A stretch of DNA of 64,000 nucleotides from Chloroflexota bacterium (GTDB lineage: Bacteria; Chloroflexota; Dehalococcoidia; Lucifugimonadales; UBA3495): positions 4,950 to 68,949 of the forward strand of contig JAQBXL010000001.1 of assembly GCA_027624135.1 (NCBI GenBank), given 5' to 3'. The translations under genes and the position numbers were made by a program. Shown here in pieces: positions 1 to 54,673 of this stretch. The notes under the pieces were generated by a model that worked only from the letters and a program-made list of their open reading frames with translations, did not search any database and had not been told where the DNA came from. Each line of letters opens with the position of its first letter. Position 1 is the first letter of the stretch.

Positions 1-234
1 CAGGTCGATGGCGCCGACGCCGGCTAGCATGTTCTTGATGAACCTTTCATGGCCCGGCACGTCCACGATGCTGACTTCCCGGCCGCTGGGCAGCGTCATC
101 CAGGCGAACCCCAAGTCAATCGTCATCTGCCGCGCCTTCTCTTCCGGGAAGCGGTCTGGGTCGATGCCGGTCAGGGCCTGAACCAGGGTGGACTTGCCAT
201 GGTCCACGTGGCCAGCGGTGCCTATAACGTACAT
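1..234 (-). CDS. selB: selenocysteine-specific translation elongation factor SelB, first 78 codons (gene runs off the left edge)
   Basis: Reverse complement from ATG at 234 reads [78 protein letters not shown]. It has GTPase G1 (GHVDHGKS) and G3 (DVPGHE) motifs and the TIDLGFA context typical of a SelB N-terminus. GAGG lies about 11 nt upstream. It is absent from the ORF track because no stop falls in the window. Confidence 0.85.
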
Positions 235-4736: not shown

Positions 4737-5642
4737 ATGGCAGGCGCTGACGTACAAGAGATTCACTGCAAGACTCTGCTCAATAAGATTGATGTCCCCC
4801 GGTTCCCGTTCCGGTGGACACTGAATCCGTACCGGGGTTGCCGCCATGCCTGCACCTATTGCTATGCCCGGCCGACCCACGAGTTCTGGGGTTTGGACTC
4901 GGGCCGGGACTTTGAGACCAGGGTCTTCGCCAAGATAAACGCTCCCGAAGTGCTCCGGAAAGAACTGCAACGCCCCAGTTGGCGGCGGGAGTCGATCGCC
5001 ATTGGCACCGCTTCAGACCCCTACGAACCGGCGGAAGCCGAATACGAGATAACCAGGCGCATCCTCCACGTGCTGCGCGATTTCCAGAACCCTGCGTCCA
5101 TCACCACCAAGGGTGTCTTGGTGCGCCGCGACGCCGACATCTTGGCGGAACTGAGCCAGGTTGCCGATGTTCACGTCAACTTCAGCATCGGGACCATAAA
5201 CGAGAAGGTGTGGCGCCTGATGGAGCCGGGGACTCCACGCCCGGAAGCTCGGCTGGAGACCATGCAGTTCTTGGTGGAGAGCGGCGTCTCCGCAGGGGTG
5301 ATGATGGCCCCGTTGCTGCCCGGCATCACCGACGACGAAGCGAATATCCAAGCGGTGGTCGAAGCAGCCCACATTCACAAGGCTCAGTACCTGGGGGCCA
5401 ATGTGTTGTTCTTGAAGCCGGGCTCAAAAGAGTGGTTCATGCCCATGCTGCGGGAAGCCTATCCCCACCTGACGCCCGGCTACAACCGCCTATACCGTAA
5501 GACCTACGCGCCGGGAGAGTACACCAAGAGCGTTCTAGATACCGTGGACCGGGTTCGGCGGCAATGGAACCTGCCAGACCGGGCAACGGTTCAAGCGAAT
5601 ATGCAGCAACGAGGCCAGTTGGCGTTGGCTTTCACTGCCTAG
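4737..5642 (+). CDS. radical SAM protein, SplB-like (DNA repair photolyase, COG1533-type) family
   Basis: NPYRGCRHACTYCYA radical SAM cluster motif, ASDPYEP, and family-typical length of 301 aa. RBS GGGAGGG. Confidence 0.8.
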   Translation: MAGADVQEIHCKTLLNKIDVPRFPFRWTLNPYRGCRHACTYCYARPTHEFWGLDSGRDFETRVFAKINAPEVLRKELQRPSWRRESIAIGTASDPYEPAEAEYEITRRILHVLRDFQNPASITTKGVLVRRDADILAELSQVADVHVNFSIGTINEKVWRLMEPGTPRPEARLETMQFLVESGVSAGVMMAPLLPGITDDEANIQAVVEAAHIHKAQYLGANVLFLKPGSKEWFMPMLREAYPHLTPGYNRLYRKTYAPGEYTKSVLDTVDRVRRQWNLPDRATVQANMQQRGQLALAFTA

Positions 5643-19764: not shown

Positions 19765-21342
19765 TTAACCGGTAGCGTATTTCGCACCCAGGTCGGTTTC
19801 CCACCTAAGATAATTCATCATTTCGGCGTAGCTGCGGTCTACTCCCAGATAGTTGATGTCTGAAGGAGGCCGCACGATTCCAGTCAGCCCTTCCTCTACA
19901 GGCAAGCCAGCCTGTTTCCAAGCAGCCATGCCGCCGTCAAGGGCCGCGACATTGGTGTAGCCCATTCCTTGCAGGGTGGCAGATGCCAATATGGCGCCGC
20001 CGCCCCGGCCACAGGTTACGACGATGGCAGCACTCTTAGAAGGAACTGCAGCTTCAATCTCAAGCTCCAACCAACTTCGGGAGATCCACTTTGCGCCTGG
20101 GGTGTGGCCCTGGGAGAAGTCCTGGCTCGTGTCCACGAAAAGGACTAGGTCAGGCTTGCTGGAGTTCAAGTCTTGAGGTGAAACCTTCTTAACCGAAGCC
20201 TCAGCCTCCGCCATCCCGGGTATGGCCAGATCCGGGAATGTAATCTCTGGCATTTGACCGGAGGCCTGCCAGGCAGGAACTCCACCATCCACAGCAAAGA
20301 CATTTTCGTGACCCATCTGCCGGTACAAGGAGGCAGTGATCGTAGCCCTGGCTTTACCGTCGCAGCAGAAAACGTAGGTGGCATTCTTCACCACAGCCAC
20401 ATCGTCGGAGCGTTGCACTGCCTGGCCGCCAGGGAAAGAACGGAAACCGGGGATATGCATCGCATTGAATTCTTCTACGGTGCGCACATCGATCAGGTAG
20501 ACCGATTCTTGGTCCCGTTTGGCCATCACTTTCTGCAATTCAGGCACGTCTAGATACCGGACGCCGTCCTCTGTGGCCAAGCGTGCGGCGTATTCCTCGG
20601 CTGCAGAACGTCCCTCTTCAGAGATCTGGGGAAGCGTGAGCCGGTCGCCGCCGAACTCCAGTTCATATCCGGCCAACAACCACCCTGAGGTGCCGTTCTT
20701 GAGACCCACGGCCTTGACGCCCATGCGTTGGAGAACCCGCGTTCCCATGATGCTGCGAGTGCGTCCGGCGCAGTTGATGACGACCGTGGTGTCGTCGTCC
20801 AACTCTTTGGTGATGTCGGTGATTCTGAGGGCAAGTTCACCGCCGGGCATGCTGCGCCCGCCAGGGATGCACATGCGCTGGTATTCCTCTGGGGTACGGG
20901 TATCCAGGATGACGAGCTTTTCGCCGTTCTCGATCCGCTGGTGCAGGTCGTCGGCCGTGATCTCAGGTACGTGGTGGACCACCTCCTGCATCTCTCCGAA
21001 CTCCTTGCTGGGCACGTTTACACCCCATTCGGTAGGCAGATCGTTGCTGGCCCAGCGGTTGGTCCCGCCCTGCAACACAGAAACGTTGGTGTAGCCCAGA
21101 TTCTTCAGGGTCTCTCCCGCCAATGCGGCGCGGCGTCCGTCGTCGTCGCAAACGACCACCTGGGTTCCTTTGAACGGAACTGATTCTTCGATGATGAACT
21201 CGATCCGGCGGCGCGGGATGAGGGCGGCGCCCGGTATATGGGTGGCGTTGTACTCGCCCGACTCCCGAACATCGATCAAAGCGAAGGGAGACTTCCCATC
21301 GAGCAGGTTCTTCAAGTCCTGGGTTGAAATGGTCTTGGCCAT
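19765..21342 (-). CDS. four-domain rhodanese-like sulfurtransferase
   Basis: Four rhodanese repeats, each with a catalytic-loop Cys: VCDDDGRR, NCAGRTRS, CCDGKARA, TCGRGGGA. Confidence 0.85.
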   Translation of the reverse strand: MAKTISTQDLKNLLDGKSPFALIDVRESGEYNATHIPGAALIPRRRIEFIIEESVPFKGTQVVVCDDDGRRAALAGETLKNLGYTNVSVLQGGTNRWASNDLPTEWGVNVPSKEFGEMQEVVHHVPEITADDLHQRIENGEKLVILDTRTPEEYQRMCIPGGRSMPGGELALRITDITKELDDDTTVVINCAGRTRSIMGTRVLQRMGVKAVGLKNGTSGWLLAGYELEFGGDRLTLPQISEEGRSAAEEYAARLATEDGVRYLDVPELQKVMAKRDQESVYLIDVRTVEEFNAMHIPGFRSFPGGQAVQRSDDVAVVKNATYVFCCDGKARATITASLYRQMGHENVFAVDGGVPAWQASGQMPEITFPDLAIPGMAEAEASVKKVSPQDLNSSKPDLVLFVDTSQDFSQGHTPGAKWISRSWLELEIEAAVPSKSAAIVVTCGRGGGAILASATLQGMGYTNVAALDGGMAAWKQAGLPVEEGLTGIVRPPSDINYLGVDRSYAEMMNYLRWETDLGAKYATG

Positions 21343-50025: not shown

Positions 50026-51162
50026 ATGGACCTGGGCCTAACCGAGATACAGCAGATGCTGAAGACCAGCGCCCAGGAATTTCTGTCCCGCGAGTGCCCT
50101 CTAACCCTCGTACGAGAGATGGAGGAGGATGAACACGGATATACCGATGGCCTGTGGCGGCAGATGGTTGGCCTGGGCTGGACCGGCGTGGCCTTTCCCG
50201 AACAATACGGCGGCACCGGCGGCAATTTCGCCGACTTGGGCGTGCTCCTTGAAGAGATAGGCCGTTCCTTGGCCCCCAGTCCTTTCTTCGCTACTGTGGT
50301 GCTCGGCGGCCTAACCGTCTTGGACGCCGGCTCGGATTCCCAGAAAGGCGACCTGCTCAGCGGCATCTGCGCCGGGACGATGACCATGACCTTGGCGGTC
50401 AACGAGGCCAGCGCTTGCTACGAGCCTTGGGGCATAGAGGCCACCGCTGCAAAGAACGGCGGCAACTTTGAGATCACCGGCACTAAATTATTCGTGCCCT
50501 CAGCCCAGGCCGCCCAGGTGATTCTTGTGGCTGCCCGGACTTCGACAAACGCAGACCCGGCCCAGGGCGTCACCCTGTTCGCCGTGCCTGCGGGCGCAGC
50601 CGGTGTGCTAGTCACCCGGATGCGGTCAATGGGCAACGAACTGGTGTTTGAGGTCAGCTTAGACCATGTTAGCGTGCCTGAAAGCTCGGTGATCGGCCAG
50701 GTTGACCAAGGATGGCCCATCGTCGAGCGGGCCATCCTGCGGGCCACCGCAGCCCAGTGTATCGAGATGCTGGGCGGGGCGCAGGCTGTTTTGGACATGA
50801 CCGTCGAATACGCCAAGGGCCGCACCCAATTTGGACGGGCCATCGGCAGCTTCCAAGCAGTGCAGCATCAGTGCGCGCGGATGGCCACGGATGTTGAAGG
50901 CTCAAAGAACATCGCCTACCAGGCCGTGTGGCGGCTATCAGAGGGACTCCCCGCTCAAAGGGAAGTCGCTATGGCTAAAGCGTGGATCGGCCCCGCATTT
51001 CGCCGCGTATGCGGTACTGCCCACCAGTGTCACGGAGCCATCGGCTTTACCAAGGAGCATGACCTGCAGTTGTACACCCGCCGGGCCAAGGTCCACGAGT
51101 TGACCTACGGCGACGCCAATATCCATAAAGAAACGGCCCTGCGCCACATCGACGACGAGTAA
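50026..51162 (+). CDS. acyl-CoA dehydrogenase family protein
   Basis: GGAGGA RBS before ATG 50026. The ACAD three-domain layout is visible (LGWTGVAFPEQYGG, FGRAIGSFQAVQH). Confidence 0.85.
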   Translation: MDLGLTEIQQMLKTSAQEFLSRECPLTLVREMEEDEHGYTDGLWRQMVGLGWTGVAFPEQYGGTGGNFADLGVLLEEIGRSLAPSPFFATVVLGGLTVLDAGSDSQKGDLLSGICAGTMTMTLAVNEASACYEPWGIEATAAKNGGNFEITGTKLFVPSAQAAQVILVAARTSTNADPAQGVTLFAVPAGAAGVLVTRMRSMGNELVFEVSLDHVSVPESSVIGQVDQGWPIVERAILRATAAQCIEMLGGAQAVLDMTVEYAKGRTQFGRAIGSFQAVQHQCARMATDVEGSKNIAYQAVWRLSEGLPAQREVAMAKAWIGPAFRRVCGTAHQCHGAIGFTKEHDLQLYTRRAKVHELTYGDANIHKETALRHIDDE

Positions 51163-51228
51163 CCATGTCGTCTAGTTCCCAATCATCACCCAATCACCAG
51201 CCAAACATGCCACGGAGGCACGCACCCC

Positions 51229-51579
51229 ATGACAACAACCACTGAATGCATTTTCTGCACCATGGCCAGAGACCCGATGCATGTCGCTCCGGTCTACCGA
51301 GACGACCGGGTCTTTGCCGTTAAAGACATCAACCCCAAAGCTCCGGTGCACATGTTGATCATTCCCAACATGCACATCGCATCGCTGGCCTACGTCGGCC
51401 CCGGACAGGTGCCGATCATGGGTCACATGTTCGTAGTGGCCGAAGAGATTGCCCGGCGTGAGGGCGTCGCCCTCAGCGGCTACCGGTTGGTTCTGAACCA
51501 GGGCGAGGACTCGGGACAAGAGATACTCCACCCGCACATGCATCTCCTGGGCGGCAAACAATTAGGAGCCATGGGCTAA
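51229..51579 (+). CDS. HIT-family (histidine triad) protein
   Basis: CIFC near the N-terminus and HPHMHLLGG (HxHxHxx motif). Confidence 0.85.
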   Translation: MTTTTECIFCTMARDPMHVAPVYRDDRVFAVKDINPKAPVHMLIIPNMHIASLAYVGPGQVPIMGHMFVVAEEIARREGVALSGYRLVLNQGEDSGQEILHPHMHLLGGKQLGAMG

Positions 51580-51602
51580 GGCCCATTCCTGGCGTTTCTT
51601 CT

Positions 51603-52190
51603 ATGCCCGATATGCCCGAGCTGCTCCAACGCCTTCAGAGTCAACTGGAATCCCTGCCAGACGGCCTGCAAGCCCACATCTACCGCGTGCGTGACGTCGC
51701 CCTGGAACTGGCGGGCCGACATAACATCGACCTTCAGCGCGCCGAGCTTGGGGCTCTGGCCCACGATATCTGCCGGGCGGTCCCAGGTGATGACCTGCTG
51801 AGGATGTCATCAGAGTTCGGCGTGGACGTGAGCGAAGTGGAACAGGACTTCCCTCTGCTGCTCCACGGTCCGGTGGGCGCTGAATTGCTCCGCAGGGAAG
51901 AAGGCCTCACCGATCACGACCTCTATGAGGCAGTACGCTGGCACTCCACCGCCCACGCCTCTTTGGATCCCCTCGGCAAGCTGATATTTCTGGCCGACAA
52001 GTTGGACCCGCAGAAGGCGGCCGTATATTCCTACCAGGCCAAGCTGCGGGATCTGGCTCTAGAAAGTTTGGACCTGGCGCTGCTGGAGTTCCTATCAAGG
52101 GAGATGGCGACCCGCATCGAGAGGGGCGAAACGGTGCATCCGGCCAGCCTGGAGGCCCGCAACAGCCTGATCTTGAAGCTTCGAGGCTAG
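51603..52190 (+). CDS. yqeK: HD-domain phosphohydrolase, YqeK-like (bis(5'-nucleosyl)-tetraphosphatase type)
   Basis: HIYRV...LAHDICR (HD motif), HGPVGA, WHSTA, FLADKLDP. Confidence 0.75.
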   Translation: MPDMPELLQRLQSQLESLPDGLQAHIYRVRDVALELAGRHNIDLQRAELGALAHDICRAVPGDDLLRMSSEFGVDVSEVEQDFPLLLHGPVGAELLRREEGLTDHDLYEAVRWHSTAHASLDPLGKLIFLADKLDPQKAAVYSYQAKLRDLALESLDLALLEFLSREMATRIERGETVHPASLEARNSLILKLRG

Positions 52191-52324
52191 CTTCGGGGCT
52201 AGCTTCGGGGGACTTGAACCTCATCTGGACATGACGCATCATATTACCGTGATGAATCTTTTGTTGAGCATGACCGATTGGTTTGCTATGCTCGATAGGA
52301 TCAACCGGCTACAGAGGTAACCAG

Positions 52325-52645
52325 ATGCAGATAAATCTGACACCAGAAGCCATAGAACATATCCAGAGCAAGGGTGGCCAGGCGGCCATCGATCTGGTCA
52401 ATTTCTCGTCTTGAGGCGGCAGTTCCACTGAGGTATCGGTCGATACCCGAATCTCCCGCCGTAACACTACCCCGTACACCAAGATCAAGCAGGACGGCGT
52501 CGAACTGTTCATCCTGCCCGACCTGGCGCGGCACCTCACTGCAATCAACGTGGATAGTAAGAGATTCCTGTTCTTCCGCAACCTTAAAGCGGAATTGGAG
52601 ATGGAAAACGGGTTAGTGCTGGGACGTCGTGCCTCCTGGGCTTAA
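52325..52645 (+). CDS. candidate IscA/HesB-fold selenoprotein 1 (in-frame TGA 52412-52414 read as Sec)
   Basis: AGAGGT lies 7 nt before ATG 52325. Reads MQINLTPEAIEHIQSKGGQAAIDLVNFSS-U-GGSSTEVSVDT...FLFFRNLKAELE. Hairpin GGTATC-GGTC-GATACC at 52432-52447. Paralogous to the next ORF, with the TGA in the same column. Confidence 0.6.
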
Positions 52646-53072
52646 CATCCAGAAACTGAGGTTTGGCCAGCCGGTCACAGCAACCGGAGCCGCTGGACGG
52701 CCGACCGACGTAGCAGTTTCGTTCACAGCCGAGGCCTTGGAGTACGTCCAGAAACAAGGCGGACTGGCGATTATAGAGTTGCGCTGTCTGGATCATTGAG
52801 CTGGCTCCGCTGCCGAGATCTCGGTCAGCACGTATCTTGGGCCTCGCAATCCATCCCTGTTTCGCGAGATTCCAGCGGAAGGCGTCCGAGTACTTGTTGA
52901 GGGCACCCTTGCTCCGTATCTGAGGCGTGTCCGTATCCGCTCCAATAAATTTCTGTGGTTCCGTTATCTGAAGGTAGAAGCTCTCCTCAGCAACGGCCAA
53001 ATAATGGGCGGCAAAGTTCCCCCATCTCTGCAGTCGGTGCGCGACCAACCCTGGCCGTGGCGGCCCCGGTGA
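52629..53072 (+). CDS. candidate IscA/HesB-fold selenoprotein 2 (in-frame TGA 52797-52799 read as Sec)
   Basis: From GTG 52629: ...VSFTAEALEYVQKQGGLAIIELRCLDH-U-AGSAAEISVST...FLWFRYLKVEAL.... Hairpin GCTGCCGA-GATC-TCGGtCAGC at 52809-52829. The start is uncertain (it may be fused to the previous ORF). Confidence 0.55.
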
Positions 53073-53095
53073 TTCTCTCTGGAACAAGATGATAA

Positions 53096-53266
53096 GCAAG
53101 CCTCCGGCGCTGCCGGTTAGCTGAGCACGAAGCGGAGAGGCCGATGCTTGGTCTCGGTGTTCGCGAGCCAGCCGTGCTCCGCTCCCAATGGCCAGGCATG
53201 GAGGGAGACATAACGACCAAGTCGCTACCCCACTTCGCCGAAAAGGTCATGCCCAAGTTCGCTTAA
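53096..53266 (+). pseudogene. C-terminal remnant of an LLM-class (luciferase-like) oxidoreductase gene
   Basis: Open frame ...LGVREPAVLRSQWPGMEGDITTKSLPHFAEKVMPKFA(stop) resembles LLM C-termini (..SLELFAxEVMPxF). No N-terminal TIM-barrel portion. Confidence 0.45.
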
Positions 53267-53349
53267 CGTCTCTGGACCTAGACACCCCAGCCAACGAAAA
53301 TAACCAGCGCACAGGCCATCCGATATGAAAACGCCGCTGCGCGGCCCGC

Positions 53350-54177
53350 CTAGCGGGCGTGGTACTTTGGCGGGCGCTTTTCCACGAACGACTGGCTGGC
53401 CTCTTTGAAATCCTCAGTCAGGTGCAGCTTCAGCGGCAGCATCTGCATGTCGGCTTCGGCTCCGGTCTGGACCCACTGACGCCGCGTCAACTTCACCGCC
53501 GCGCGGGTCGCCAGGGGCGGCGACTTCAGGACCTTCTCCGCCAGTTCCTCCGCGGCGCTCAGGTGCTCTCCCGCTGGAACCAGCCGGTTGATCAGCCCCA
53601 ACCGGTATAACTCGGCGGCGGTGACGTGCTCCCCGGTTATCACCATCTCGCTGGCTATCTTGGAGGGCATGAAGGCGTTAACCTTGGCCCAGATCCTACC
53701 CCCTGGCAGCCCTCTTCTGGTCTCGGTGATGCCGAACCTGGCATCCTCTGAGGCGACAATCATGTCGGATTCGGCGGCAATGACTATGCCCGCGCCCAGA
53801 GCGTACCCGTGGACAGCGGCGATGACGGGTTTCCAGTTGATGGCGCGGCCCATGTAACCCTCGGGGTTGGGGCCCCGCTCCCTACGGGCGCTCTGCTCCG
53901 GCGTCATGGCCACGAACCGCTGTTTGATGTCCGCCCCCGCGCAGAAACTTCGCCCCGCGCCGTGAACGATGGCCACCCAGGCTTCATCGTCCAGGTCGAA
54001 CTGCAGCAGCGCCGAGTGCAGGTCTTCTTCGAACTGGTCGTTTACCGCATTCAGCGCCTGGGGCCGGTTGAACATGATGTAGGCGGTCTTTCCCAACCGT
54101 TTGTAGATCATCGTCTCGTACTCGGTGATCACCTGGGGTTCATCAGGCTGGGATTGTTTGGTGTCTGCTTCGGGCAC
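53350..54177 (-). CDS. enoyl-CoA hydratase/isomerase (crotonase) family protein
   Basis: FNRPQALNA, GAGRSFCAGADI, AAVHGYALGAG oxyanion-hole motifs. Confidence 0.9.
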   Translation of the reverse strand: MPEADTKQSQPDEPQVITEYETMIYKRLGKTAYIMFNRPQALNAVNDQFEEDLHSALLQFDLDDEAWVAIVHGAGRSFCAGADIKQRFVAMTPEQSARRERGPNPEGYMGRAINWKPVIAAVHGYALGAGIVIAAESDMIVASEDARFGITETRRGLPGGRIWAKVNAFMPSKIASEMVITGEHVTAAELYRLGLINRLVPAGEHLSAAEELAEKVLKSPPLATRAAVKLTRRQWVQTGAEADMQMLPLKLHLTEDFKEASQSFVEKRPPKYHAR

Positions 54178-54325: not shown

Positions 54326-54337
54326 CGGAGTATGGAA

Positions 54338-54673
54338 ATGACCACCTTTGATTGGCCCATCACCTCTAGTCCCGTTCTCGACGCCGTGCCCGAATTTTAC
54401 CACTACGAAGACACGGGTTGTGAGGTCTCCGACTCCTGCCTCAATTGCCCGCTGCCCCAGTGCAAATACGACGACCCGGCCTGGTTCCAGCGCAATCGGC
54501 GATTGGCCCGCGACTTCAAGATCTGGTCGGCCATGCAGCATGACGACCTGACAGTCGAGGAGGCTGCGGAGCGGTTCTCGGTCACTGTTCGCACCATCTT
54601 CCGGATCATGCGCCGCTGCCGAGACGCCGCCATGATCGACCAGGAAGAGCTGGCGGTCTTCGCCGCGGATTAG
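54338..54673 (+). CDS. small Cys4 plus helix-turn-helix protein, putative SOS-controlled regulator
   Basis: CEVSDSCLNCPLPQC (C-x5-C-x2-C-x4-C) followed by LTVEEAAERFSVTVRTIFRIMRR (HTH). GGAG lies 7 nt before ATG 54338 (the track start is 54332). Confidence 0.6.
   Translation: MTTFDWPITSSPVLDAVPEFYHYEDTGCEVSDSCLNCPLPQCKYDDPAWFQRNRRLARDFKIWSAMQHDDLTVEEAAERFSVTVRTIFRIMRRCRDAAMIDQEELAVFAAD

Follow-up and report, generated by a model that had tools for sequence, protein, structure and literature searches.

We examined a 64,000-nucleotide stretch of DNA from a Chloroflexota bacterium of the marine SAR202 lineage (contig JAQBXL010000001.1, forward strand, positions 4,950 to 68,949), which we call the window. 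Between positions 52325 and 53072 of the window lie two tandem open reading frames, ORF1 and ORF2, and each of them contains an in-frame TGA. It is likely that both encode selenoproteins of the CC/Se motif family (NF041239 / PF28096) and that SelB decodes their UGA codons as selenocysteine (Sec). If the genes are considered separately, decoding as Sec is very likely for ORF1 and is less certain, but still fairly probable, for ORF2. An earlier reading of the sequence (the original prediction) had proposed that both encode selenoproteins with an IscA/HesB-like fold, and overall, our results support that interpretation. The proteins are new members of a catalogued but uncharacterised family: both the family and its status as a selenoprotein family are already curated. 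It is listed, with the motif CxxU, among the predicted selenoprotein families in a 2026 review (PMC13188914). That review was the only paper on the CC/Se family that turned up in our literature searches (for SAR202 with selenocysteine, for NF041239, and for GGUC with the selenocysteine insertion sequence, or SECIS).

ORF1 (52325-52645, plus strand) has 106 codons, from an ATG at 52325 to a TAA at 52643-52645, and its single in-frame TGA (52412-52414) is codon 30. A Shine-Dalgarno-like AGAGGT, as read from the sequence, is at 52313-52318 on the plus strand, 6 nt before the ATG. This motif or a near variant (GAGGT or AAAGGT) is found upstream of ORF1 in most of the 17 orthologous loci that we examined. 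ORF2 (52629-53072, plus strand) has 147 codons, from a GTG at 52629 to a terminal TGA at 53070-53072, and its proposed Sec codon (52797-52799) is codon 57. The GTG overlaps the final 17 nt of ORF1, and it is the sole canonical start in its frame after a stop at 52614-52616. The putative Sec is in the context DLVNFSS-U-GGSSTEVSVDTR in ORF1 and CLDH-U-AGSAAEISVSTYLGPR in ORF2, so that ORF2 has the motif C-x-x-x-U. On the sequence, we confirmed all of the previously given coordinates for the two genes, their TGAs, and the hairpins described below. (We also considered a +1 frameshift at GCU-UAA-C that would fuse ORF1 to ORF2. We rejected it because there is a conserved GTG start and because re-pairing of the Ala-tRNA on CUU would be impossible.)

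The two proteins are similar to each other. With Cys in place of the TGAs, they align in BLASTP over 100 residues without a gap (36% identity, 61% positives, E = 8e-25), which is better than the earlier estimate by hand of about 77 residues, and both TGAs fall in the same column. The DNA is less alike than the protein, as had been claimed: nucleotide identity across those 100 codons is 48%, or 47%, 63%, and 35% at the first, second, and third codon positions. This indicates that the similarity is at the level of protein, and judging from these sequences, ORF1 and ORF2 arose by an old duplication and have been conserved as proteins.

A bacterial gene that is decoded with Sec should have a conserved in-frame UGA with coding sequence on either side, and this is what we found. 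A scan of GTDB with one genome per species returned 16 loci, all of them from metagenome-assembled genomes (MAGs) of marine Dehalococcoidia/SAR202. In 16 of 16, there is a TGA in the Sec column and both flanks are conserved. The same holds for SAR202 Io17-Chloro-G9 and two related contigs (L001-L003), for locus L031, and for seven loci that hold six divergent metagenomic members of the family, with identities down to about 35% (L022-L029). The ORF1-type TGA is kept, with the frame open across it, in the 25 other loci that we examined, which are from genomes and metagenomes of marine Dehalococcoidia/SAR202. The sole homologous locus without TGA in the ORF1 column is L030, which has GGA.

The pattern of substitutions also crosses the TGA. 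Among 13 close orthologs of ORF1 (mean pairwise nucleotide identity of 83%), there are 43, 24, and 86 variable columns at the first, second, and third codon positions. Upstream of the TGA, the counts are 11, 5, and 25, and downstream of it they are 32, 19, and 61. Because variation at the third position dominates on both sides, ORF1 appears to be a single reading frame that is under purifying selection both before and after the TGA.

Another claim was that gene calling misses these genes, and the public databases bear this out. Searching 5.8 billion predicted proteins with a word index, we found 63 relatives of ORF1, and almost all of them are C-terminal fragments of 59-87 amino acids that start just past the TGA. 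In one case (P0063), the entry is the N-terminal part and stops precisely at the TGA. Another (P0001) is full length with Trp at the Sec site, and its DNA has TGA there. (P0065 is probably full length for the same reason, that is, because TGA was translated as Trp; we checked the DNA for P0001 only.) Similarly, when 1.84 billion cluster representatives were searched exhaustively with HMMER, there were only 71 relatives at E ≤ 0.001, and the majority of these are post-TGA fragments. For the SAR202 subfamily, nearly all of the public entries are N-terminal ORFs of 29 amino acids or C-terminal ORFs of 48-87 amino acids. Since the relatives are stored as pieces that end or start at the TGA, we conclude that gene callers cut this gene systematically. 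(GenBank labels the fragments as "hypothetical protein, partial.")

If the TGAs were genuine stops, then the region would contain pseudogenes or unrelated short ORFs, or else the real genes would be on the minus strand (52309-52581 and 52584-53099). Standard gene callers do give only pieces of ORF1, and no stop-free ORF in this part of the window is longer than the two on the minus strand. But the TGA and both of its flanks are conserved even among divergent relatives, and the codon-position bias is equal on either side of it. Furthermore, in the window one must go about 45 codons downstream of the TGA of ORF1, well beyond the conserved EVSVDT segment, to reach another in-frame ATG, GTG, or TTG. 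As for the minus-strand ORFs, neither has a match in Pfam at E ≤ 0.01, and their frames have stop codons in most orthologs and are not consistently open. On these two grounds we rejected them as genes; they had seemed unconvincing at the outset as well. The comparative data already contradict the idea that the TGAs are stops, and we give it almost no credence.

ORF1 belongs to a curated family. It matches NF041239, "CC/Se motif family (seleno)protein," with 42.0 bits (E = 7.6e-11; residues 1-90 align to positions 1-89 of the 91 in the model), which is above the curated cutoff of 40 bits. The ortholog from L001 scores 46.8 bits. ORF2 scores 35.1 bits (E = 1e-8), and we assigned it to the family because of its strong similarity to ORF1. 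Pfam's corresponding family, PF28096 (CC_Se_fam), is precomputed on the homologs in the databases. The original prediction had left it open whether these belong to a HesB-like selenoprotein family. They do not belong to the one curated as TIGR01911: neither ORF1 nor ORF2 matches TIGR01911 even at E ≤ 10. (A core member of the CC/Se family, P0179, does have a weak match to TIGR01911, with E = 0.013.)

In the members of the family that lack a TGA, the Sec column contains Cys. U30 of ORF1 aligns, with no upstream gap, with Cys30 of nine Cys-type members (seven GCG-type and two CC-type), so the expectation that homologs would have Sec or Cys at this position was correct. Two kinds of full-length member lack the TGA: some have the motif ..VGCGK.. 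along with a single Cys near the C-terminus, and others, of the CC type, have ..GCCGG... In both kinds, the first Cys is residue 30. One sub-branch (P0134, P0136, P0143, P0154, P0156, P0157, and P0163) combines Cys30 with a lone Cys that lies some 4 residues before the C-terminus, and a Sec-type member, at 1396-1710 of L026, has both U30 and that C-terminal Cys. (This is reminiscent of IscA, with its Cys35 and its Cys at the C-terminus. In the proteins of the window, there is no such C-terminal Cys.)

The RNA of ORF1 can form a stem-loop directly after the UGA, with G and U in its apical loop, as is expected of a bacterial SECIS. This hairpin (GGUAUC-GGUC-GAUACC, 52432-52447, plus strand) starts 20 nt past the UGA and is encoded by the codons for EVSVDT. 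The GGUC loop begins 26 nt after the U of the UGA, or 23 nt in two of the sequences. That the hairpins would be kept in relatives was also part of the original prediction, and for ORF1, they are both conserved and covarying. (For ORF2, the core is conserved but the outer stem is not, and we saw no covariation; see below.) Specifically, the ORF1 hairpin is present in 23 of 23 sequences (the window and 22 others), and the GGUC loop is invariant among them. Among 14 distinct sequences, every position of the stem is paired; the fourth pair changes from A-U to G-C in six of them, and a U-A pair changes to A-U in one. In L029, two adjacent pairs change together (GGUGAC/GUCACC). These paired changes alter the encoded residues from S to T and from D to V, so the pairing of the RNA was maintained at the cost of the protein motif. 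There is also a possible lower stem (52415-52419 with 52456-52460, plus strand), which is 87.5% paired and shows one compensatory change, from G-C to C-G.

The ORF1 hairpin also lacks synonymous variation. The six codons of the hairpin are identical across the 13 close orthologs, but among the other degenerate codons whose amino acid is invariant, just 7 of 46 are identical (p = 8e-5, Fisher's exact test). It seems that the near-invariance of EVSVDT is largely imposed by the SECIS hairpin that it encodes. For comparison with a characterized SECIS, we used the element from E. coli fdhF, which folds with a GGUC apical loop as well. (The 42-mer that we used agrees with the databases: its identity to fdhF is 100% in the E. 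coli genomes listed, and overall there are matches in 5,419 of 5,426 genomes.)

L030, the locus with GGA (Gly) at codon 30, is also the sole ortholog with an altered loop: a synonymous change from GTC to GTA turns GGUC into GGUA. Its ortholog of ORF1 (203-523; P0002) has gained Cys at positions -4 and -2 relative to the Sec site (CACVG), and its tandem ORF2 still has a TGA. The joint loss of the TGA and of the loop can be viewed as a natural control, but it is suggestive only, as the coverage of this contig is low (1.4x).

The window contains part of the machinery for decoding Sec. As was proposed originally, positions 1-234 (minus strand) encode the N-terminal 78 codons of selB, which runs off the end of the window. 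TIGR00475 is the best match among GTPases by far, with E = 2.4e-34. The full-length gene, which encodes 621 amino acids and includes the winged-helix domains of SelB (PF09106, PF09107, and PF25461), is on an overlapping and independent metagenomic contig, L020, which we linked to the left end of the window by an identical HemW protein. The use of Sec by Dehalococcoidia is established in the literature: BSepDB includes MAGs from this class with 46-49 selenoproteins (PMC13326102).

Several results weigh against decoding as Sec. ARAGORN found no tRNA-Sec in the window or in L020, and when we scanned 10 ORFs close to selB with NCBIfam, none was selA or selD. Extending leftward by way of the HemW contig, we saw no selA, selD, or tRNA-Sec within 10 kb. 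Rfam identified no SECIS or other family, either in the whole window at the gathering thresholds or in 52250-53150 at E ≤ 10. By single-sequence folding energy, the hairpins of ORF1 and ORF2 are unremarkable relative to shuffled sequence (z = -1.7 and -0.7). These folding energies are uninformative, so the support for the hairpins comes from the comparative data. Finally, the incorporation of selenium is a prediction for every member of the family, including ORF1 and ORF2.

Given these results, the UGAs might be read through in some other way, such as near-cognate decoding as Trp, Cys, or Gly, or local suppression. The ortholog with Gly at the Sec site would fit with this. But no role for selB other than the insertion of Sec is known, and selB is on this contig. 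Moreover, a conserved and covarying hairpin with the loop of the fdhF SECIS is found at the distance expected of a SECIS, and the amino acid that fills the column in members without TGA is Cys, which is the usual evolutionary counterpart of Sec. Genome-wide reassignment of TGA can be set aside because TGA is the terminator of 8 of the 33 long ORFs in the window. NCBI also curates the family as a selenoprotein family (NF041239; PMC13188914). Overall, we consider readthrough without Sec to be very unlikely.

The evidence for ORF2 is more mixed. Its candidate SECIS hairpin (GCTGCCGA-GATC-TCGG(t)CAGC, 52809-52829, plus strand) has a core, CCGA-GAUC-UCGG, at 52813-52824, and an outer stem with a bulged U. 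The core is 6 nt upstream of the position of the ORF1-type hairpin, and its loop begins 20 nt after the U of the UGA. The core stem is invariant in all of the orthologs that are not degraded and is broken in a remnant of the gene in L006. The loop is GAUC in the window, L011, and L013, and it is GGUC in L004, L005, and L007. A divergent ORF2-type gene in L029 retains both the TGA and the ORF1-type GGUC hairpin, which implies that the hairpin was rebuilt within the ORF2 lineage. It seems that this lineage escaped the constraint on EVSVDT by rebuilding its hairpin 6 nt upstream.

ORF2 also has two segments outside of the conserved domain. A linker of 27 residues runs from the GTG at 52629 to the domain. 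Among intact copies, the length of the linker differs by multiples of 3 nt. The linker also keeps the motif N[IV]Q[KR]LR[FY]G, which suggests that it is translated. At the C-terminus, there is a conserved tail that is rich in Pro and Trp (GGKVPPSLxSVRDQPWPWRPR; 53010-53069 in the window), which the ORF1-type proteins lack. (A Pro/Trp-rich tail is still recognisable in the divergent copy from L029, as GGPVPHSIGAIGNQPWIWRAS.)

On the other hand, ORF2 could be a decaying duplicate that is decoded poorly or not at all, with ORF1 as the working gene. ORF2 is frameshifted in L007 and L011, is a remnant with extra stop(s) in L006, and is absent from L008, L009, L010, L012, L014, and L018. Because it is frameshifted, a remnant, or absent in these nine related genomes, we regard ORF2 as dispensable and as undergoing repeated loss. 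Its score for NF041239 is below the cutoff, the outer stem of its hairpin is not conserved, and we saw no covariation in the stem. Also, the second base of its loop in the window is A, instead of the G that is found in fdhF, in three orthologs of ORF2, and in the invariant loop of the ORF1-type hairpins. But in the window, ORF2 is intact from the GTG to the stop, and it is likewise intact in L004, L005, L013, and L030, which keep its TGA, CxxxU context, and C-terminal tail, for a total of five genomes. Among intact copies, the variable columns by codon position are 30, 17, and 82, which is the pattern expected under purifying selection. The TGA and a good GGUC hairpin are retained in the divergent L029 as well. 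We view decay of the window's ORF2 as unlikely, and we still favor the decoding of its UGA as Sec.

If both UGAs are decoded as Sec, then expression might proceed as follows. Translation of ORF1 would begin at the ATG at 52325. At the UGA at 52412, the hairpin GGUAUC-GGUC-GAUACC, 20 nt downstream, would recruit SelB with Sec-tRNA. Sec would become residue 30, and translation would continue to the TAA at 52643 to give a protein of 106 amino acids. ORF2 would begin at the GTG at 52629, and as this codon overlaps the end of ORF1, its translation is likely coupled to that of ORF1. The UGA at 52797 would be decoded in the same way by means of ORF2's own, differently placed hairpin (CCGA-GAUC-UCGG), to give a protein of 147 amino acids.

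We then considered the structure of these proteins. The AlphaFold2 model of P0001, which is 70% identical to ORF1, was computed from an alignment with 22 rows and has a mean predicted local distance difference test score (pLDDT) of 86.3 and a predicted template modelling score (pTM) of 0.75. In the model, residues 19-40 form a beta-hairpin with residue 30 at the turn. Foldseek's best matches in the PDB are SufA (2D2A) and IscA (1X0G, 1R94, and 1S98), with template modelling (TM) scores of 0.50-0.58. The first 11 matches (TM scores of 0.40-0.58) also include HI1723, AQ_1857, DsrR, and 2P2E, which is a putative Fe-S biosynthesis protein. The single unrelated entry among these 11 is 9a4q, at rank 8. 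Profile comparisons point the same way. With hhalign, U30 aligns to Cys35 of E. coli IscA, in the turn ..TSG-C-SG.. (E = 0.009; treating U as C biases this slightly). (For this alignment we used a sequence that we take to be that of E. coli IscA.) ORF1 has an 18.1-bit match to PF01521 (E = 0.0033), which is under the gathering score of 26.3, and ORF2 has no match. Among the Cys-type and core members, P0134 is also below the threshold, and P0179 just passes (26.8 vs. 26.3 bits). The family profile's only sequence match in the PDB is marginal: residues 1-77 align to 21-98 of DsrR (2K4Z), with E = 0.09.

From these models, we predict that the ORF1 and ORF2 proteins adopt the fold of the A-type carriers (IscA/SufA/HesB), with Sec at the tip of the beta2-beta3 hairpin, in the position of Cys35 of IscA. 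The original prediction had the same fold, the same position for Sec, and the absence of the C-terminal pair of cysteines, and the models and alignments agree on each count. A point against this assignment is that the modeled protein is an ortholog with Trp at the Sec position instead of the window's own protein. Also, of the three cysteines of E. coli IscA (Cys35, Cys99, and Cys101), only the first position is filled in the window's proteins, by Sec; the C-terminal CxC of IscA is absent from both ORF1 and ORF2.

By analogy to these carriers, the Sec most likely lies at the surface and serves as a ligand or nucleophile that binds or passes on a metal, an Fe-S species, or a chalcogen; that it is half of an intramolecular redox couple of the CxxU type seems less likely. 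We favor the ligand or nucleophile role because no partner Cys is conserved, and the Sec site is probably formed across the interface of a homodimer or heterodimer. Any specific biochemical role that we might assign to these proteins is tentative and, on balance, doubtful: it depends on the analogy of fold.

The same genes, decoded in the same way, might instead encode thiol/selenol oxidoreductases with a Cys-Sec (selenenylsulfide) couple. The review gives CxxU as the motif of the family, and most uncharacterised selenoproteins are presumed to be redox proteins (PMC13188914). Within the SAR202 branch, some proteins do have a potential partner: Cys is at -4 from the Sec in ORF2, L001, L007, L019, and L027 (for example, CLDHU, CISNU, or CFSSU), at -3 in L028 (CxxU), and at +3 in L022 (UxxC). 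But the position of this Cys is not conserved, and it is missing from ORF1 of the window (NFSSU) and from most of the close orthologs, which have Ser at -4. The family's paired-Cys motif (CC, or CxxU in Table 1 of PMC13188914) is absent from both of the window's proteins: ORF1 has NFSS-U-GG, with no Cys within 4 residues, and ORF2 has CxxxU. Furthermore, the predicted fold is that of an A-type carrier and is not thioredoxin-like, and, as in IscA, the partner of residue 30 in the Cys-type members and in the Sec-type protein from L026 is a Cys at the C-terminus. An oxidoreductase seems unlikely, and we prefer the ligand or nucleophile role.

A more specific version of the ligand role is that the SAR202 proteins make up a distinct branch of the family, where Sec would be the sole invariant reactive residue, and that they form dimers with facing selenols. 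This would place a bis-selenolate site or a diselenide switch on the A-type scaffold. ORF1 would pair with ORF2, or with itself where ORF2 is absent, and the role of the site would be to bind or transfer a metal, a fragment of an Fe-S cluster, or selenium itself. We view this as a long shot. If it is true, then these proteins are selenium-ligated relatives of IscA that are apparently widespread in marine SAR202.

The neighbors of ORF1 are a gene for a HIT-family protein (51229-51579, plus strand) and a gene for a YqeK-type HD hydrolase (51603-52190, plus strand), both identified by matches to NCBIfam. The order HIT, YqeK, ORF1 is kept in 19 of the 19 loci that we compared and also in L028, and these three genes may form one operon. 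In closely related SAR202 loci, the order is ACAD, HIT, YqeK (HD), ORF1, then ORF2 and/or a variable insert, then enoyl-CoA hydratase (minus strand), a protein of 113 amino acids, and another ACAD (minus strand). These neighbors have housekeeping or fatty-acid-type functions and give no clue as to the function of ORF1 or ORF2. We scanned 51100-53400 for promoters and terminators and found nothing above chance, and a crude and non-exhaustive scan of the gaps in a greedy ORF map gave no convincing case of another gene interrupted by TGA.

We also noticed some other features of the region. In the syntenic SAR202 genomes, ORF1/ORF2 and the enoyl-CoA hydratase are separated by a slot of variable length, about 0.3 to 2.4 kb (for example, 53073-53349 in the window, 4319-6681 in L008, 2735-5118 in L012, and 4749-6089 in L005), which looks like a hot spot for insertions and deletions. 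The protein of 113 amino acids (54332-54673, plus strand) has a Cys-rich N-terminus (YHYEDTGCEVSxSCLNCPLPxCKYDD) and a C-terminal helix-turn-helix (HTH), with weak matches to ISL3-HTH, Mor, and sigma-70 region 4. It is found downstream in every SAR202 locus that is long enough, with 62-96% identity. Between selB and hemW, at 235-1454 of the window (11225-12444 of L020), is a 1.2-kb island of low G+C content (43-50%, vs. 58% for the window). None of the minus-strand ORFs of the island (306-695, 827-1168, and 967-1347) has a match in Pfam, and the one scanned against NCBIfam, 306-695, has no match there either. No gene was called there on the matching public contig. Possibly, the island is a small element that was inserted there, or else a gene that has degraded. 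Finally, ARAGORN reported a "tRNA-Thr (cgt)" at 20091-20185 (plus strand). At 95 nt, it has a length like that of tRNA-Sec, but its anticodon is not UCA. This call is probably false, as it lies within an ORF of 525 amino acids (19765-21342, minus strand) that contains several rhodanese domains and has matches of the MoeB/rhodanese type.

For SAR202, which is a major lineage of the deep ocean, these results yield an additional selenoprotein that is well supported and whose position in the genome is conserved. Such genes are systematically split or lost in public annotation, either as fragments or with Trp written at the UGA, so the proteomes of SAR202 and the counts of their selenoproteins are incomplete. 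A simple rule could recover them: look for a TGA followed by a hairpin with a GGUC loop, downstream of hit-yqeK. ORF1 and ORF2 also provide a clean natural example of a SECIS that shapes a protein motif and of a SECIS that was replaced in a paralog. For the family, which was uncharacterised, we provide Sec/Cys pairs and, from the models, a putative assignment to the A-type Fe-S carrier fold. No new category is opened here; the features of the SAR202 subfamily, the tandem pair, and the rebuilt SECIS are details of modest interest.

How do the two proteins compare to known systems? Like other members of the CC/Se family (whose NF041239 model is also named Moor_selen_rel), ORF1 has a single domain of about 90-106 amino acids with Sec or Cys at residue 30, after a conserved strand with the pattern GG(x)5D. 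But the motif is a CC pair (GCCGG) in the core members that we found and CxxU according to the review, whereas it is NFSS-U-GG in ORF1 and CLDH-U-AG in ORF2. ORF2 differs further in scoring below the family's cutoff and in its extra segments at both ends. Neither the tandem Sec/Sec pair nor the occurrence in SAR202 is mentioned in the review (PMC13188914) or in the available portion of the BSepDB account (PMC13326102). The HesB-like selenoproteins (TIGR01911) are also small proteins with a single Sec and are related to the HesB/IscA fold, but their motif is UxGP, while ORF1 and ORF2 have U-G-G-S and U-A-G-S.

The A-type Fe-S carriers IscA, SufA, and ErpA (PF01521) share the predicted fold, and the Sec of the window's proteins aligns with Cys35 of IscA in the turn of the beta-hairpin. 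The difference is that the window's proteins keep one potential ligand per chain, the Sec. DsrR, an IscA-like protein from the dsr cluster of Allochromatium vinosum, shares the IscA fold and is not known to have the canonical Cys triad. The window's proteins similarly match the IscA fold and lack this triad, but DsrR has Ala where they have Sec, and its context among dsr genes is different from theirs.

As for decoding, the SECIS of E. coli fdhF is, like the hairpin of ORF1, a stem-loop within the coding sequence directly past the UGA, and both have GGUC as the apical tetraloop. The stem sequences are unrelated. A bulged U is absent from the upper stem of ORF1 and present in ORF2 on the 3' side of the stem, and the second position of the loop is A in ORF2. 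The loop begins 21 nt after the U of the UGA in fdhF, as compared to 26 nt in ORF1 (23 nt in some of its relatives) and 20 nt in ORF2.

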